Shown here piece after piece: positions 18,644-31,480 of a stretch of 40,710 bases of DNA. The notes below the pieces were generated by a model that ran no database searches, had not been told where the DNA came from, and saw only the letters and a list, made by a program, of their open reading frames with translations. How positions within the stretch are numbered: the first letter of the stretch is position 1; each line of letters begins with the position of its first letter. Both the position numbers and the translations under genes were made by a program. The stretch comes from Enterobacteria phage HK140, in sequence record NC_019710.1. One strand, 5' to 3'.

Positions 18644-18658
18644 TTGCCTGGAGAAAAT

Positions 18659-20032
18659 ATGCTTTATAACACCGGCACCATCGCCATTAATGGAAATACC
18701 GCCACCGGGAAGGGTACAAACTGGACGGCACCGGCCAGCCAGGTTCGCGCTGGCCAGACAATTATCGTGATGTCTAACCCGGTGCAACTGTTCCAGATTT
18801 CATCCGTGAACAGCGCCACGTCAATGACGGTTACGCCTGCCGCTTCCCCGGCGCTGAGCGGCCAGAAATACGCCATTCTGGTGTCAGACATTATCTCCGT
18901 GGACGGACTGGCCCAGGCAATGTCGCAGCTCATCAAAGAGTATGACGAGAACATTGGCGCGTGGGAGACGTTCGCCACTACCTCAGCAAACCAGACCATC
19001 ACCGTTACCATCAACGGGACCACCGTAACCATCCCTGGCATCGGTAAACTGGCACAGAAAGGGAGCAACGGTGCGGTTACTGTCGCAGACGGCGGAACCG
19101 GGGCAACAACGGCAGAAGGGAGTCGCACAAACCTCGGTTTAGGAGACAGCGCCACAAGGAACGTCGGAACGGCTGCCGGAACTGTGGCGGCCGGGGATGA
19201 TTCGCGATTCGAAAAGATTGCCAAATTAGGAAGTGCAGCAACAAAAGATACTGGTGAGGGTGAAGGAAATGTGCTGATAACGGGGTCATTTGGTGTGGGT
19301 TCTAAAATTTTACCAGTCATCAGCGATATTTGGGATAAAAGCCAAGGCTCGCGCTTCTGCAACGTTACCCCTGCGACATTGGGAGGTCCTGGTATTTACG
19401 GCTCAGGCATCCGGCTGTCTGATCGAAACATCGGAAGTGGAGCAACCTATGCCGCACAGCAATCCTTTTTTGCTCTGATTTTTAGCGGCAAAGTCATTCA
19501 ATTTATGGGGATGACTGATGGCGTCGACACCGGGTGGATGAAGATTTACCACACAGGGAACACGACCAGGGCATCTGATGGCACGCTGAAGGCCGCCTCC
19601 CCGATTGTACGGTTGTTTGGGAATGGCAAATGCCAGCTTAACGACGAATCAGAGGGGTGCACTGTAACCCGCTTGGCTACGGGAAAATATCTGGTTGAAG
19701 GGTGTGAGGGGCTTAACTCTGATGCCGCCTGGGGCGGTATTGATGGCGGTTTCGACATCCCAACCGACCGCAACAAACAACCGCTCATCTGGCTGGACTA
19801 CGAAGTAAACGCTGATGGTTCTGTGCTGATTCAAACCTACCACCGCACACATCCTTCGGCACCTGCTTATGCCAGAAATGAACGTGACGGGATCAATGAC
19901 GGAGAGCCTATTGATATCCCGTCAGATCAGTTCGTCAGCGTTCGAGTAGAAATGCCTGCTAACAGCATCTGGAATCAGAAACAGAAAGCAATAGAAGAAG
20001 CTGCGAAAAGCGCGTCCGAAGAGGTTCAATAA
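18659..20032 (+). CDS. Side tail fibre protein
   Basis: 458 aa from the ATG at 18659 (RBS GGAG); Gly/Thr/Ala-rich with motif DGGTGATTAEGSRTNLGLGDSATRNVG. Confidence 0.75.
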   Translation: MLYNTGTIAINGNTATGKGTNWTAPASQVRAGQTIIVMSNPVQLFQISSVNSATSMTVTPAASPALSGQKYAILVSDIISVDGLAQAMSQLIKEYDENIGAWETFATTSANQTITVTINGTTVTIPGIGKLAQKGSNGAVTVADGGTGATTAEGSRTNLGLGDSATRNVGTAAGTVAAGDDSRFEKIAKLGSAATKDTGEGEGNVLITGSFGVGSKILPVISDIWDKSQGSRFCNVTPATLGGPGIYGSGIRLSDRNIGSGATYAAQQSFFALIFSGKVIQFMGMTDGVDTGWMKIYHTGNTTRASDGTLKAASPIVRLFGNGKCQLNDESEGCTVTRLATGKYLVEGCEGLNSDAAWGGIDGGFDIPTDRNKQPLIWLDYEVNADGSVLIQTYHRTHPSAPAYARNERDGINDGEPIDIPSDQFVSVRVEMPANSIWNQKQKAIEEAAKSASEEVQ

Positions 20033-20078: not shown

Positions 20079-20345
20079 TCACACTCCATTCTGGAGAACG
20101 GTCGGGAACTCAGAAACCAGCCACATATCGGACTCTTCAAACATTTCCTCCAGCATGCGGTTCAGTTTTTCCCGATCACTTTTGCTGGCATCGCTATTTA
20201 AACCGTTCGCCTGCATTGGCTTCACCTTCACTTCGGCATCGGGGAAAATCTGGTGCACCCGCTTCTTCAACTCGGCCAGTATGATCTCTCTGGCCCCTTT
20301 GAGCCCCTCAACATTACGCTTGTCATAAACTAGTTCAACGAACAT
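20079..20345 (-). CDS. dinI: DinI-like damage-inducible protein
   Basis: Aligns with E. coli DinI along its length (IFPDAEVKV, DREKLNRMLEEMFEESDMWLVSE); alternative ATG at 20351. Confidence 0.8.
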   Translation of the reverse strand: MFVELVYDKRNVEGLKGAREIILAELKKRVHQIFPDAEVKVKPMQANGLNSDASKSDREKLNRMLEEMFEESDMWLVSEFPTVLQNGV

Positions 20346-20387
20346 AACCATCCCTCTCGCTTACTTGATCTCTGCAAATAAAAATAC

Positions 20388-20407
20388 TACTGTATTCATA
20401 TACAGTC
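20388..20407. promoter_or_regulatory. LexA (SOS) box TACTGTATTCATATACAGTC
   Basis: Perfect CTGT-N8-ACAG in the divergent intergenic region between dinI (-) and the impC-like/umuD' operon (+). Confidence 0.8.
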
Positions 20408-20430
20408 AATGTGTCATGAGGGCTATACTT

Positions 20431-20670
20431 ATGCCTCGTAAATCAGATATTCATGCAGCTTTTTTAGCCTCTATAGAACAGAATCAAAAGGGTTACCTTT
20501 GTCTCAATACAAATAAATTCATCAATAAGTTGCGCGAGAAGAGCTGGCATTTCAGCCAGGCGGATGCAAATACATGGATCGAGCGATACCAGCCGGACTT
20601 CGCCGATAAGACGACAAACGGCAGCCAGAACCGGTACTGGATCCTGCGTAACATGGGGAGGGTTTTCTAA
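20431..20670 (+). CDS. Small protein upstream of umuD', positionally ImpC-like
   Basis: 79 aa from the ATG at 20431 (RBS GAGGG); stop overlaps the umuD' start (TAATG). Confidence 0.4.
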   Translation: MPRKSDIHAAFLASIEQNQKGYLCLNTNKFINKLREKSWHFSQADANTWIERYQPDFADKTTNGSQNRYWILRNMGRVF

Positions 20671-21059
20671 TGGGCTTTCCTTCGCCGGCTACGGATTACG
20701 TTGAACAGCGTATATCGCTTGACGAGCGCATCATCACCAGGCCAGCGGCTACGTACTTTATGCGGGCCGGTGCAACGCATTACCGAGAAGGTATCCTCAA
20801 TGGTGCTTTGCTGGTTGTCGACGCGTCAATGTCTCCATGTGATGGTTCATTGCTGGTTTGCACAGATAGCGGTGAGTTTAGGATTAAGCGGTATCGCACA
20901 CACCCGCGGCCACACCTGGAAAACCTTGAGAACGGTAAACGGGAGAGTTTGCTAGATAAGGATGAGGTATCCGACACTTCGCGTCCGGTATTTGGGGTGA
21001 TCACGTATATCATCAACGACGCGCGGTCTGGTGAGTTTGATGACTACCCGCTGAAGTGA
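20670..21059 (+). CDS. UmuD'-like protein (S24 family), natively lacking the N-terminal cleavage segment
   Basis: 129 aa starting MGFPSPATDYVEQRI, matching UmuD from Gly25 (GFPSPAADYVEQRI); the position of the UmuD Ser nucleophile aligns to Thr/His. Confidence 0.8.
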   Translation: MGFPSPATDYVEQRISLDERIITRPAATYFMRAGATHYREGILNGALLVVDASMSPCDGSLLVCTDSGEFRIKRYRTHPRPHLENLENGKRESLLDKDEVSDTSRPVFGVITYIINDARSGEFDDYPLK

Positions 21060-21092: not shown

Positions 21093-21317
21093 TAAAATCA
21101 CAAATCATGAAACCCTTGTTCATGGCGGTTCTCAGGGGTATTGCGCGTAATCGTGAAAGAGGAAGGTAGGTTGTTTATCTGTGTCTGTCATTGTCTAGCA
21201 TTGTCCACTGTAGTTAATTAACTGCCTGTTATAACTCGAAAAACAACCATTTTTTCACCTGAGTATGTCTACGAACGTCAAATATAGTTGTTTACTGTGC
21301 GCTGTTGTCCATGTGAT

Positions 21318-21372: not shown

Positions 21373-22551
21373 ATGGCTATAAGCGACACAAAACTGCGTA
21401 CTATTTATGGTAAACCATATTCGGGCCCACAAGAAGTGGCTGATGCCGATGGCCTCAGCGTACGAATTTCACCGAAGGGGGTCATTCAGTTCCAGTACCG
21501 TTATCGCTGGCATGGCAAGCCTAATCGACTTGGGCTTGGTCGATACCCATCCCTGTCTTTGAAGGATGCCAGACAGATCACTGCTGACTTGCGAAATCTC
21601 TATTTCTCAGGAACGGATCCACGCACCTATTTTGAAGAGAAGGTGGAGAACTCCATGACGGTCGCCCAGTGTCTCGACTACTGGTTCGACAACTACGTCT
21701 CTACAACTCTCAGAGAAAAGACCCAGGCACTTTACCGATCAACGGTTATGAAGCGCATGCATGACGCCTTTCCTAATCGTCCGGCATCTTCTATCACGGT
21801 TAAGCAATGGGTTGACCTGCTTACCGAAGAAGAAAGAGATAATCCACGCCGAGCAAGGCAGGTGCTAAGTCAACTAAGATCAGCAATAAGTTGGTGCATG
21901 CGGCGTCAGTTGATAGATAGTTGCGCAATTATGAGCATCCAACCAAGGGACTTCGGCTCCCGCGCTGAGGTAGGGGATCGGGTACTGTCGTATCACGAAC
22001 TGGCTAAGATTTGGCTTGCTATTGAAAGAAGCCGTGCGTCTACGTCAAATAAGCTACTTCATCAGATGCTTATGCTGTGGGGGGCGAGGCTCTCAGAGCT
22101 TAGGCTGGCAAAAAAGACAGAATTTGACCTGCTGGAAAACGTATGGACCGTACCGAAAGAGCATAGCAAGATGGGTAATGTTATCCGCCGTCCAATCTTC
22201 GAACAAATTAAGCCTTTCCTCGAAAAGGCCATGACAACGTACAATGATGTTCTTTTCCCTGGAGAAGACATAAACAAACCGATCAGCATCGCTGCAGCCA
22301 ACCGATTCGTAAATAGAATAAGGGGAGGGATGGATCTAGGTTACTGGCGAACACACGATTTCAGAAGAACGCTTGTTACACGTCTGTCCGAGATGAATGT
22401 CGAGCCTCATGTTACTGAGCGAATGCTCGGTCATGAACTTGGCGGGATAATGTCCGTGTACAATAAACACGACTGGATAGAGGCTCAGCGCAAAGCGTAT
22501 GAGCTTCACGCTGATAAATTGTTCTGGCACATCAGGAGCATTTCTGATTAA
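21373..22551 (+). CDS. int: Tyrosine integrase (P4-like, with N-terminal arm-binding domain)
   Basis: 392 aa; C-terminal catalytic region with HDFRRT and a terminal Tyr-containing segment (SVYNKHD). Confidence 0.9.
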   Translation: MAISDTKLRTIYGKPYSGPQEVADADGLSVRISPKGVIQFQYRYRWHGKPNRLGLGRYPSLSLKDARQITADLRNLYFSGTDPRTYFEEKVENSMTVAQCLDYWFDNYVSTTLREKTQALYRSTVMKRMHDAFPNRPASSITVKQWVDLLTEEERDNPRRARQVLSQLRSAISWCMRRQLIDSCAIMSIQPRDFGSRAEVGDRVLSYHELAKIWLAIERSRASTSNKLLHQMLMLWGARLSELRLAKKTEFDLLENVWTVPKEHSKMGNVIRRPIFEQIKPFLEKAMTTYNDVLFPGEDINKPISIAAANRFVNRIRGGMDLGYWRTHDFRRTLVTRLSEMNVEPHVTERMLGHELGGIMSVYNKHDWIEAQRKAYELHADKLFWHIRSISD

Positions 22552-22723
22552 CGCCACCGTTAAGAATCCACCCTTCAACAGCTTCACGAAGGTATGATTT
22601 GGGGTGGGTTCTGACTGGCTTCGGAAATCCGTGCCGTTTGGTATAGTTCCAGATTGTCTGACGTGATGAAACACCGAGCTTGTTCATCACTTCTTTCTCA
22701 GGAATCAGGCTGGTATCGGTCAT
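22532..22723 (-). CDS. xis: AlpA-family excisionase / transcriptional regulator
   Basis: 63 aa, helix-turn-helix pattern LGVSSRQTIWNY...FPKPV...WI; RBS GGAG; 3' end overlaps the int 3' end by 20 nt. Confidence 0.75.
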   Translation of the reverse strand: MTDTSLIPEKEVMNKLGVSSRQTIWNYTKRHGFPKPVRTHPKSYLREAVEGWILNGGVNQKCS

Positions 22724-23021: not shown

Positions 23022-23861
23022 TTAGCCACGGTTTACCTCCTGCGGCGGTTCTGGTAGTGGCATCCAGTGTGTGACATTGCTAATCAGACCATATTCATTA
23101 GTTTGAGGATGGTTGCCGTTATCGTCTCCGTATTTAAGACTCTCCATAAAGCCATAATGCCTATCACCATTAACGCTCACAAAGCCGTAATAAGCAGGTA
23201 TAACGCCGATCTCACACGTAACCAGCAAAGGAAAACTAGTTCTCCAATTTAGCTCGCCGATTACAGGCATCTGCTCACTACAGCTTATCCAACCATCTGG
23301 AATCACCGGAGAGTTGCCACCCTGAACAGTAGGCATATCCGGACCTTTGCGAATCGCCCTGGCAAGATCGATTTGGTCGTCGTACAACCAGTCACCTGTT
23401 TGCGGATGATTGGCTTCTGCCAATTGTGCAGCCCACTCCAGGCCGTCTTTGTGTCCTTGCAGATAGTCCAGCGGTAACTCATCACTATTACTTACAGGTT
23501 CGGCCTGAAGCATGGAGGCGCGATAGGCGTTCCAGCCGACAGCTTTTCCGTGTTCAAACGCGCTGTCAAAGTCATCATCAATTTCCATCGCAGCGGGCAC
23601 AGATACCGGCGCTGGCGGGGCGGTGTAAAGCGGCGTTACTTCTCGCAGCGGGTCGGCATAAGCATTGCCACTATCGAAGCTGACGTTGTTTTTTGCCCCG
23701 CCTCCTGACAGCAACCACGCCACCGGCTCCGCTTCGAGCGATGCCAACGCTATACGCGCCATCTCTTTGACAACGTCACAGTTTTTATTTCCTTCGCAAT
23801 CATCCATCAAAAGCCAATCGTCATTGATTATTTCTTTAATCTTATCCCGTGAAAGTTCCAT
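23022..23861 (-). CDS. DUF551-domain protein
   Basis: 279 aa; C-terminal WISCSEQMP...VTHWMPLPEPP matches the DUF551 signature as I recall it. Confidence 0.55.
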   Translation of the reverse strand: MELSRDKIKEIINDDWLLMDDCEGNKNCDVVKEMARIALASLEAEPVAWLLSGGGAKNNVSFDSGNAYADPLREVTPLYTAPPAPVSVPAAMEIDDDFDSAFEHGKAVGWNAYRASMLQAEPVSNSDELPLDYLQGHKDGLEWAAQLAEANHPQTGDWLYDDQIDLARAIRKGPDMPTVQGGNSPVIPDGWISCSEQMPVIGELNWRTSFPLLVTCEIGVIPAYYGFVSVNGDRHYGFMESLKYGDDNGNHPQTNEYGLISNVTHWMPLPEPPQEVNRG

Positions 23862-28937: not shown

Positions 28938-29519
28938 ATGAACAACTCATGGTGGCAGGAACTAATGCATTTTTTCCTGCAAGGAATGACACTTAAACAG
29001 TTGATTCATATGCTAATCATCCTGATCATATTGATTATTGTTATGCCGGTAAGCGTAAAAGAATGGATAAACCTGCATAATCCAGAAATCCTTCCTCATT
29101 ACTGGATGTATTACATCCTGTTGTTTTGCGTTAGCTATGTGCTTAACGGCGTTGTTAATTCCGCTTATCACGCTGTGACTGAAAGAATTGAGGTATTCGC
29201 TGCTCAGAAGCGCAAATCTAAAGAAGAAAAATATGTGCAAGATTTGTTTGATTCGTTAACTCTTGGAGAAAGAGCGTATTTGGCATTCGCTGTAGCCGCG
29301 AATAACCAGCTAAAGACAGAAAAGGGAAGCCCTGAAGCAATCTCATTGCTCGAAAAAGGGCTTCTTATTCGGATACCTTCTGCTACTGGATATCCTGAAA
29401 TCGACCGTTTTGTTATCCCGGAACGCTATAGAAATGAGTGCTACATTAGGTTTGCTGGGAAGAAAGACAGTCTTATGGATGAACTTATCGCTCAGGATAA
29501 GCATGGCAAAAACAAGTAA
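28938..29519 (+). CDS. Membrane protein, candidate SieB-like superinfection exclusion protein
   Basis: 193 aa; two N-terminal hydrophobic helices (LIHMLIILIILIIVMPVSV, YWMYYILLFCVSYVLNGVV) and a charged C-terminal domain; opposite strand to the surrounding early operon. Confidence 0.45.
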   Translation: MNNSWWQELMHFFLQGMTLKQLIHMLIILIILIIVMPVSVKEWINLHNPEILPHYWMYYILLFCVSYVLNGVVNSAYHAVTERIEVFAAQKRKSKEEKYVQDLFDSLTLGERAYLAFAVAANNQLKTEKGSPEAISLLEKGLLIRIPSATGYPEIDRFVIPERYRNECYIRFAGKKDSLMDELIAQDKHGKNK

Positions 29520-30763: not shown

Positions 30764-31480
30764 TCAAACCAGCCTTAGTTTTGTCTCAATTGCAACGCCT
30801 ATAATCTTGCAGTTTCCATTGATTGGCACGAGAGGCCATGCAGGATTAAGTCCCTTGAGGTATTTATTTCCGCCGTCGATTATCAGCTTCTTGAATGTTG
30901 CTTCGTTAGAGTCAGAAAGTTTTGCTATGACCAAGCTGCCGTTGACCGCCTCCCTTCCGGTATCGAAAAGAACGAATGTTCCCTCTGGAATGCTTAACCC
31001 AACCGGTGCCGTCATTGAATCACCTTCCACTTTAAGCCAGAACGCATTACCTTGAATATGCGCGTCAGACTCAAGCCAAACATCTATGTCTTTAATGGTG
31101 TATGGTTCGCATGCTTCACACCACGAGCCAGCCTGGATACTGCTTAACACCGGATACCTCTTTCCTGCTCTGTATTCCCCTGCATACCTTACGTTGGCAT
31201 CGCTCTTAAGGCTTTCTGCCTGTTCTGCAACCTTGGCAGCAATTGACTGGCTAAAATCAGCAATTGAGACTTGCAACAACCGTGCAAAACCAGATGCAAC
31301 CTCAACGTTTAGCGCGTTTCTGCCATTAAGATAATGCCCTACCGCTCCTTGGGTGATACCCAGTTCATCAGCGATTGAGTATTGGGTTATTCCCAATTCT
31401 TTCTTTTTTGACTCATACAAAGCCTTAAGCCGCTTAGCGTCTTCGAGCTGTTCTGTCGTCAGTGATTTTTTATTTTCCAT
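30764..31480 (-). CDS. cI: CI repressor (HTH plus S24 autopeptidase)
   Basis: 238 aa; N-terminal HTH (QYSIADELGITQGAVGHYLNG), C-terminal GDSM serine motif and downstream Lys; divergent from cro across OR. Confidence 0.9.
   Translation of the reverse strand: MENKKSLTTEQLEDAKRLKALYESKKKELGITQYSIADELGITQGAVGHYLNGRNALNVEVASGFARLLQVSIADFSQSIAAKVAEQAESLKSDANVRYAGEYRAGKRYPVLSSIQAGSWCEACEPYTIKDIDVWLESDAHIQGNAFWLKVEGDSMTAPVGLSIPEGTFVLFDTGREAVNGSLVIAKLSDSNEATFKKLIIDGGNKYLKGLNPAWPLVPINGNCKIIGVAIETKLRLV

Follow-up and report, generated by a model that had tools for sequence, protein, structure and literature searches.

A probably SOS-regulated HumD-type cassette with a DinI-family gene at the tail-fibre/attP end of the lambdoid phage HK140

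Enterobacteria phage HK140 (NC_019710.1; 40,710 nucleotides, the whole of which is called the window here) carries three small genes around a single LexA box between its tail-fibre gene and its phage attachment site, attP (positions 20,079 to 21,059). A DinI-family gene lies on the minus strand, and the plus strand holds the pair orf79 and humD, the latter encoding a homologue of UmuD' that is made already truncated. In our reading, to which we give a probability of about three in four, a lambdoid E. coli prophage carries here, at its tail-fibre/attP end, an SOS-inducible accessory cassette that is a member of the HumD system. The gene identities, the LexA box and its conservation, the truncated start of HumD and the absence of umuC follow directly from the analysis. 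A partnership of HumD with host UmuC is suggested by analogy with HumD of phage P1, an effect of the DinI-like protein on RecA by analogy with DinI of E. coli, and any role given to orf79 within the cassette is guesswork. A sequence-only reading of the same stretch had described it as a phage device for modulating host translesion synthesis or the SOS response. Such a role is likely and is backed by the homology to P1 HumD, but the device is not novel, as it belongs to the HumD family and its layout is annotated in phiKO2 and P1. Membership in the NCBIfam family NF051876, homology to P1 and the phiKO2 layout make the cassette a known and named kind, and it is one more example of the HumD system.

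The LexA box, TACTGTATTCATATACAGTC, was recovered at exactly the coordinates at which it had been read earlier (Table 1). It was judged by its mismatches to the consensus and by its conservation across loci. Compared with the 20-mer consensus TACTGTATATATATACAGTA it shows three mismatches, with CTGT-N8-ACAG intact, and it is the sole site in the window at five or fewer mismatches. The pattern TACTGTAT-N4-ATACAGT was matched by 0 of 100 shuffled sequences. In a survey of 80 IMG/VR loci carrying humD, a LexA box was present in 77, lying ~35 nt upstream of the humD ATG, or ~280 nt upstream where orf79 intervenes. In the corresponding set of 80 orf79 loci the box stands ~44 nt upstream of the orf79 ATG in 76, and a LexA site is annotated both in the P1 and in the phiKO2 record.

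By its position, the single box would allow LexA to repress both divergent promoters. The putative rightward promoter of orf79-humD was read by eye and was not called by the consensus scan; its -10 element falls within the LexA box, and its TTGATC together with the spacing is also found in phage Flotzy. The two overlapping promoter candidates of the dinI-like gene are consensus matches only, at 9 of 12 positions each, and both overlap the box as well. In relatives the operator region can look different. Cassettes of the phiKO2 type carry two tandem LexA boxes 24 bp apart, e.g., TACTGGATGGATATACAGTA and TACTGTGTTTTTATCCGGTA in phiKO2 itself (L006:1955-2000), and such tandem boxes are frequent in phiKO2-type IMG/VR loci (e.g., L048, L052 and L071), whereas the window has a single box. 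At the IMG/VR loci L049, L050 and L051 the intergenic region and the LexA box are lost, and dinI-like sequence runs into a truncated orf79-like region upstream of humD.

The two plus-strand open reading frames (ORFs) overlap in TAATG, in agreement with the two-gene operon seen from the sequence, and humD is by this arrangement probably translationally coupled to orf79. HumD was assigned to NF051876 ('HumD family translesion DNA polymerase') with 221.8 bits at a cut-off of 120, its residues 1-128 spanning profile positions 1-128 of 129. It is 66% identical to P1 HumD, 69% to N15 gp26, 65% to phiKO2 gp23 and 73% to HK639 gp28. Against the UmuD' structures 1UMU and 1I4V the identity amounts to ~40% over 115 residues, and residue 2 of HumD aligns with residue 1 of 1UMU (E=6e-19), which is Gly25 of UmuD (8GMT chain B). 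HumD starts at this glycine, and neither the N-terminal arm nor a Cys/Ala-Gly cleavage site remains. A longer, cleavable form is impossible because 6 codons before the ATG the humD frame is closed by a stop, and the codons between the two offer no start; a cleavable UmuD made from an upstream start was rejected on this ground. The self-cleaving UmuD model PRK10276 gave 82.2 bits, under its cut-off of 110, and Pfam Peptidase_S24 covers residues 1-77 of HumD only (28.4 bits). The proposal that the second gene is made already truncated at the UmuD' start thus held in a formal alignment to UmuD and ImpA, which showed no intact Ser-Lys dyad, and no upstream in-frame start was found.

Self-cleaving relatives carry a serine nucleophile in a G-D/E-S-M motif and a lysine that acts as the general base of the dyad. 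HumD has Thr in place of this Ser and keeps the Lys. Both the HMMER and the MAFFT alignments place Thr34 at the position of UmuD Ser60, within the motif GATHY, where, owing to a one-residue deletion, the ungapped alternative is His35; the position of UmuD Lys97 is taken by Lys73. An assignment by eye had arrived at the same residues (Thr/His, Lys retained) and had taken them as a sign that self-cleavage is no longer needed. To place the window protein within its family, 128 HumD-type proteins were aligned with UmuD and ImpA. Met at the UmuD Cys24 position followed by Gly at 25 was found in 127 of the 128, and the one-residue deletion, at Ser57, in all of them. At the Ser60 position 109 have Thr, 14 Ser (P1 among them) and 5 another residue, i.e., Thr or Ser in 123/128; at the Lys97 position 113 have Lys and 13 have Met, with HK639 and the plasmid forms among the latter. 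Thr34 and Lys73 of the window are, by this alignment, the norm of the HumD family, and the dyad positions look constrained rather than decaying. Dispensable self-cleavage is therefore plausible, but free decay of the dyad is not what is seen, and the argument that cleavage is no longer needed leaves the conservation not fully explained.

Two further segments are conserved in at least 90% of the HumD family. The N-terminal motif GFPSPAxD is kept though it is no longer a cleavage substrate, and an acidic C-terminal extension of ~10 residues, INDARxGEFDDxP, is absent from UmuD and ImpA; in the window HumD this tail corresponds to residues ~116-129 (21014-21056). A second, shorter type of pre-truncated UmuD'-like protein, with 106 residues, follows orf79 in phage Flotzy (L002:3114-3434) and in many of the IMG/VR loci L094-L173. 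It keeps the start MGFPSPAxDYxE, and the whole segment around the catalytic Ser is missing.

No UmuC was found in the window: a tblastn search with ImpB over the whole 40.7 kb gave a best E of 0.35. A hidden umuC elsewhere in the phage was rejected on this result, and the earlier observation that neither UmuC nor ImpB is present stands. The same applies to relatives, as a UmuC homologue lay within 6 kb in 0 of the 80 humD loci and was found in 0 of 160 related loci when the 80 orf79 loci were added. Many of the IMG/VR loci end a few bases past humD, so humD is typically the last gene before the prophage boundary, as in the window. The cassette is present in hundreds of IMG/VR prophages. Of 5426 complete E. 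coli genomes, 617 contained a match to its region, none of these matches reaching 80% coverage, and one of the genome matches listed is annotated 'HumD family translesion DNA polymerase | DinI family protein | hypothetical protein'.

The product of the minus-strand gene matches Pfam PF06183 with 80.4 bits (cut-off 24.2) over profile positions 2-63 of 63, and the DinI homologue named in the sequence-only reading is thereby confirmed. Its score against the NCBIfam DinI equivalog model, 40 bits, misses the cut-off of 111; the protein is thus a family member and not an orthologue of the chromosomal DinI. An acidic C-terminal helix segment, LEEMFEESDMW, is visible in its sequence. DinI of E. coli stabilises RecA filaments at stoichiometric levels and inhibits RecA-mediated UmuD cleavage when high (PMC6590174), and by analogy the minus-strand gene would encode an ImpC/DinI-type RecA-filament modulator of the cassette.

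The name impC had been given to the other side of the box, i.e., to the first plus-strand gene, and this had to be withdrawn. The identity of the ImpC query was verified: on IncI1 plasmids the gene immediately preceding impA/impB matches it at 100%. At ≥99% identity it is found in more than 1600 plasmid records, and the matches listed annotate it as 'DinI-like family protein'. A direct BLASTP comparison of this verified ImpC with the orf79 protein gave no alignment at E<=100, and the identification of orf79 as ImpC was rejected. ImpC aligns instead with the minus-strand protein (BLASTP E=5e-8; tblastn E=1.8e-5). Since ImpC belongs to the DinI family, the minus-strand gene is the real ImpC relative of the cassette, and the likeness of orf79 to impC is limited to its position in front of a umuD homologue.

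orf79 had no match to a Pfam, NCBIfam or PADLOC family. Its own family is small, with 214 clusters at 50% identity among 1.84 billion representatives, and the members are nearly always stand-alone proteins of ~79 residues. A confident AlphaFold model built on 49 homologues (pLDDT, the predicted local distance difference test score, 90.7) shows an H-b-H-H-b-b topology of helices and strands, from which a winged-helix fold is predicted. The net charge is ~+5 by residue count, and no relation to the N-terminal domain of LexA was detectable. A role of orf79 or HumD as an anti-phage defence component was rejected, as PADLOC gave no matches for either at E<=0.1.

The linkage of orf79 to its neighbours was surveyed in the best 80 IMG/VR loci. 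A UmuD'-like gene of at least 100 codons follows directly downstream in 68 of them, counted when it matched at least one of three pre-truncated queries (the 129-residue HumD, the 106-residue Flotzy type and a 127-residue plasmid type), and a divergent DinI gene stands beside orf79 in 67. Outside phages, 1018 plasmid records were matched by orf79, 942 of them conjugative. In both plasmids inspected, an IncX3 plasmid with NDM-5 and an IncFIB plasmid, a UmuD'-like gene stands directly after the orf79 homologue. This tight linkage of orf79 to pre-truncated UmuD'-like genes, in phages and on about 1000 plasmids, is modestly new, as is the acidic C-terminal tail of the HumD family. In the IncX3 plasmid pP785-NDM5 (L009:3001-3599) and the IncFIB plasmid (L008:3001-3625) the orf79 homologue is ~36% identical, the UmuD'-like gene is pre-truncated and umuC is missing. 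The IncX3 pair has ISKox3 just upstream, with half a LexA box remaining, and IS26 removes the 3' end of its UmuD'-like gene. Apparent orf79-HumD fusions among metagenome gene calls (P0431, P0323 and P0355) were rejected as evidence of an interaction: out-of-frame sequence lies between the orf79 and HumD halves, and all three look like frameshifted read-throughs.

The HumD system was reportedly first characterised in phage P1, in 1999. Our statements on P1 HumD and on the P1 and phiKO2 genomes rest on GenBank annotation and secondary citations. According to the note in the P1 record, HumD 'functionally complements E. coli UmuD'' and a LexA site is common to humD and the divergent lxr. P1 is described as coding for an already activated, shorter UmuD that was named HumD (PMC7092418), and humD is LexA-regulated (PMC9603915). 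The likeness to the window is close: P1 HumD also has 129 residues with an MGFPSPA start at the UmuD Gly25 position, and P1 has a LexA box directly upstream, a divergent LexA-regulated partner gene and no umuC. In contrast to the window, the gene opposite is lxr (190 residues) instead of a short DinI gene, orf79 is missing, and HumD keeps Ser at the Ser60 position. P1 is moreover a plasmid prophage with phd-doc downstream of the cassette, where the window has attP and int. The linear plasmid prophages phiKO2 and N15 resemble the window in having Thr at the Ser60 position of gp23 and gp26, respectively, and differ in having no orf79 between box and humD. In phiKO2 (gp22/gp23) the same order is seen as in the window, with a tail gene, a bidirectional terminator, a DinI gene on the minus strand, a LexA site and a UmuD'-like gene on the plus strand, but in these linear plasmid prophages parBA comes after the cassette in place of attP-int.

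In the impCAB operon of IncI1 plasmids (TP110 type), too, a DinI-family protein (ImpC) is found together with a UmuD homologue (ImpA). However, impCAB is one co-directional operon that includes the polymerase ImpB, whereas the DinI/ImpC-type gene of the window is divergent and no polymerase gene is present. ImpA is full length (145 residues) with a cleavage site and a GESM serine motif, unlike the pre-truncated homologue of the window. E. coli umuDC shares the S24 fold and LexA control. Compared with UmuD, HumD of the window lacks the 24-residue N-terminal arm and has no need for RecA-mediated cleavage, and it differs further in its Thr at Ser60 with the one-residue deletion, its acidic tail and the absence of an adjacent umuC.

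From these comparisons the following course of events is proposed. In a lysogen, host LexA bound to the box would silence the dinI-like gene to its left as well as the orf79-humD operon to its right. Upon DNA damage, activated RecA would promote self-cleavage of LexA, and all three genes would be expressed. HumD would be made directly in the UmuD' form, skipping the slow RecA-dependent cleavage of UmuD, and a HumD dimer would join host UmuC to give a translesion polymerase similar to pol V; the use of host UmuC would explain why the phage has no umuC of its own. The DinI/ImpC-type protein may bind RecA filaments and, at high dose, inhibit UmuD cleavage, which would bias pol V assembly toward the phage subunit. 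orf79 probably acts together with HumD.

Several observations weigh against this reading. The partnership with UmuC is transferred by analogy from a protein that is 66% identical. Thr and Lys are conserved at the dyad positions, for which a pure adaptor role gives no explanation. orf79 and humD are not obligate partners, because each occurs alone, orf79 in HK225 and humD in P1, N15, phiKO2 and HK639; orf79 is thus a common but optional companion inserted between operator and humD. Finally, humD decays easily in relatives, where internal stops and C-terminal remnants beside attP are found. In APC_JM3.2 (L001:2459-2908), the closest relative in the phage database, humD is 74% identical and interrupted by two in-frame stops; the record lists only a 98-residue 'DNA polymerase V subunit', and this humD is probably a pseudogene. 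Unannotated C-terminal remnants of humD stand beside an attP of type 2851 in mEp234, E212, Sf101, HK544, phage 2851, Stx2a_WGPS8 and other Stx phages. They match residues 45-129, 73-129 or 101-129 with 51-86% identity (20989-21059 on the window side), and erosion setting in on the attP side seems to have reduced the cassette repeatedly. The pseudogenes and remnants indicate that humD is often gained and lost, as expected for an accessory moron, and hence that its benefit is conditional.

The same decay could mean that the cassette is a drifting moron without current function in the phage. Close relatives often have a pseudogene or remnant of humD beside attP, and insertion sequence (IS) elements truncate the plasmid copies. 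In the window, however, all three cassette ORFs are intact, with Shine-Dalgarno sequences and the TAATG coupling, the LexA box is intact, and the HumD family is conserved over hundreds of loci with strongly conserved columns, which together make loss of function highly improbable. Greater weight is due to the idea that HumD mainly modulates the SOS response or RecA instead of building a polymerase, with the DinI-like protein tuning the same filament. HumD could sit in the RecA-filament groove that LexA, CI and UmuD use, form heterodimers with host UmuD, or cleave UmuD or another S24 protein in trans through its Thr-Lys pair. The constraint on the dyad positions in proteins without a self-cleavage site and the conservation of GFPSPAxD would fit such a role, as would the pairing of HumD with a RecA-filament binder; the phage CI cleaves itself in a RecA-dependent manner, so that tuning of the filament would be of consequence to it, and UmuD'C was reported to modulate RecA recombination (PMC6590174). 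Against it stands the complementation of UmuD' in mutagenesis that the P1 record and PMC7092418 give for P1 HumD, the only family member for which it is known; this function needs UmuC. GDSM has been remodelled to GATHY with a one-residue deletion, and Met at Lys97 in HK639 and plasmid forms together with the loss of the Ser60 segment in Flotzy-type relatives makes catalysis dispensable in parts of the family. We consider this explanation unlikely.

An induction factor or antirepressor such as GfoA/GftA, Tum or AntC is what orf79, alone or with HumD, would have to be in a further explanation, possibly with other prophages as its target. LexA-controlled loci that join a small antirepressor to a dinI homologue are known from the Gifsy phages, 186, PSP3 and N15 (PMC3121763), and those of Gifsy, 186 (Tum) and N15 (AntC) share with the window a LexA box, a dinI homologue, a small protein and a location outside the immunity region. 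orf79 is small and basic with a modelled winged helix, is the first gene past the LexA box, and occurs without humD in HK225 and other loci. The Gifsy, 186 and N15 phages have non-cleavable repressors, though, whereas CI of the window is of the lambda type and carries the entire S24 self-cleavage domain, so that induction would need no antirepressor. The tblastn matches of orf79 in the phage collection included no Salmonella phage and hence no Gifsy phage, the sequences of GfoA, GftA, Tum and AntC not having been compared directly. The UmuD'-like gene that follows orf79 in most loci points to a role related to translesion synthesis, and orf79 also occurs on conjugative plasmids, where there is no phage repressor. 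We hold an antirepressor to be very unlikely. A more speculative thought, which we hold to be quite improbable, is that orf79 and the pre-truncated UmuD'-like protein form a two-part unit independent of UmuC. The winged helix might bring a HumD dimer to DNA or RecA filaments, in the manner of a LexA-like regulator in two pieces, or the Thr-Lys pair and acidic tail of HumD might process or sequester host UmuD, LexA or CI in trans. If this were true, phages and about 1000 conjugative plasmids could re-time the SOS response of their hosts. The SOS-inducible HumD cassette working with host UmuC remains the preferred reading.

The window as a whole reads as a complete lambdoid temperate E. coli phage. 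Its gene order runs from the terminase and head-tail genes through the tail-fibre gene and the cassette to attP and int; beyond int lies a leftward early region with a RecT-family gene, a homologue of antiterminator N, lambda-type CI, CII, O, P and Q. The GC-rich stem-loop that precedes the cassette is likely a bidirectional terminator insulating it, and the phiKO2 record has a 'putative bidirectional' terminator at the equivalent position. That attP and int follow humD directly, as noted from the sequence, was borne out: the attP core is identical to the annotated site of mEp234, whose annotation ties the type 2851 attachment site to the host sbcB gene, and int marks the prophage end adjoining the cassette. 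The DNA of this region is mosaic. Identity is 97-99% to mEp234, HK544 and Stx phages in the int-attP part, ~81% to phages Flotzy, Eeyore and HK225 in the dinI-orf79 part and 87% to APC_JM3.2 in the humD part. No structured RNA was found in the attP gap or elsewhere in the window at the Rfam gathering threshold.

Table 1 Features of the cassette and its surroundings in the window.
Feature	Position	Strand	Evidence and remarks
Tail-fibre gene	18644-20032		Phage_tail_C_2 E=5.5e-59
GC-rich stem-loop	20041-20074		Terminator-like, 13 pairs and T-run; between tail-fibre gene end (20032) and 3' end of dinI-like gene
DinI-family gene (90 aa)	20079-20351	-	Pfam PF06183 E=1.2e-22; phrog_189 E=8.9e-22
Putative orf79-humD promoter	20365-20393	+	-35 TTGATC (20365-20370), 17-nt spacer, -10 TACTGT (20388-20393)
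Two overlapping sigma-70-like promoter candidates, dinI-like gene	20381-20417	-	ATGACA-17-TACAGT; TTGACT-17-TATTTT
LexA (SOS) box TACTGTATTCATATACAGTC	20388-20407		Single, in 79-bp gap between divergent genes
orf79 (79 aa), basic protein with predicted winged helix	20431-20670	+	phrog_3893 (unknown function) E=1e-39
humD (129 aa), pre-truncated UmuD' homologue	20670-21059	+	NCBIfam NF051876; TAATG overlap with orf79
attP core CGTAATCGTGAAA (type 2851)	21146-21158		13-mer identical to annotated attachment site of mEp234
Tyrosine integrase (int)	21373-22551	+	Pfam Arm-DNA-bind_3 E=1.6e-17; Phage_integrase E=1e-16
Lambda-type CI repressor	30764-31480	-	Pfam HTH_3 E=8e-10; Peptidase_S24 positions 1-116 of 116, E=1.3e-23

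Further genes were recorded beyond the cassette. A small AlpA/HTH_17-like gene (22532-22723; weak Pfam match, E=0.003) lies on the minus strand, opposite to int, whose 3' end it overlaps. Its equivalent in mEp234 is annotated as an AlpA-family regulator similar to excisionase, and the gene is probably the excisionase. The early-left region contains a 279-residue DUF551 protein (23022-23861, minus strand), which lies downstream of int and this gene, and a SieB superinfection-exclusion protein (28938-29519, plus strand; E=1.4e-25).

The cassette adds one lambdoid prophage to the HumD family, whose logic of a ready-made UmuD', host UmuC and LexA control has been known since 1999. What retains interest is the linkage of orf79 to UmuD'-like genes, the conserved Thr-Lys positions and the HumD-specific acidic tail. 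Coupled as it is to genes for pre-truncated UmuD'-like proteins, both in phages and on IncX3 NDM-5 plasmids, the phrog_3893 family is a candidate accessory factor of mobile-element translesion synthesis, and the commonness of the cassette has a bearing on stress-induced mutagenesis in lysogens and on how resistance evolves in them.

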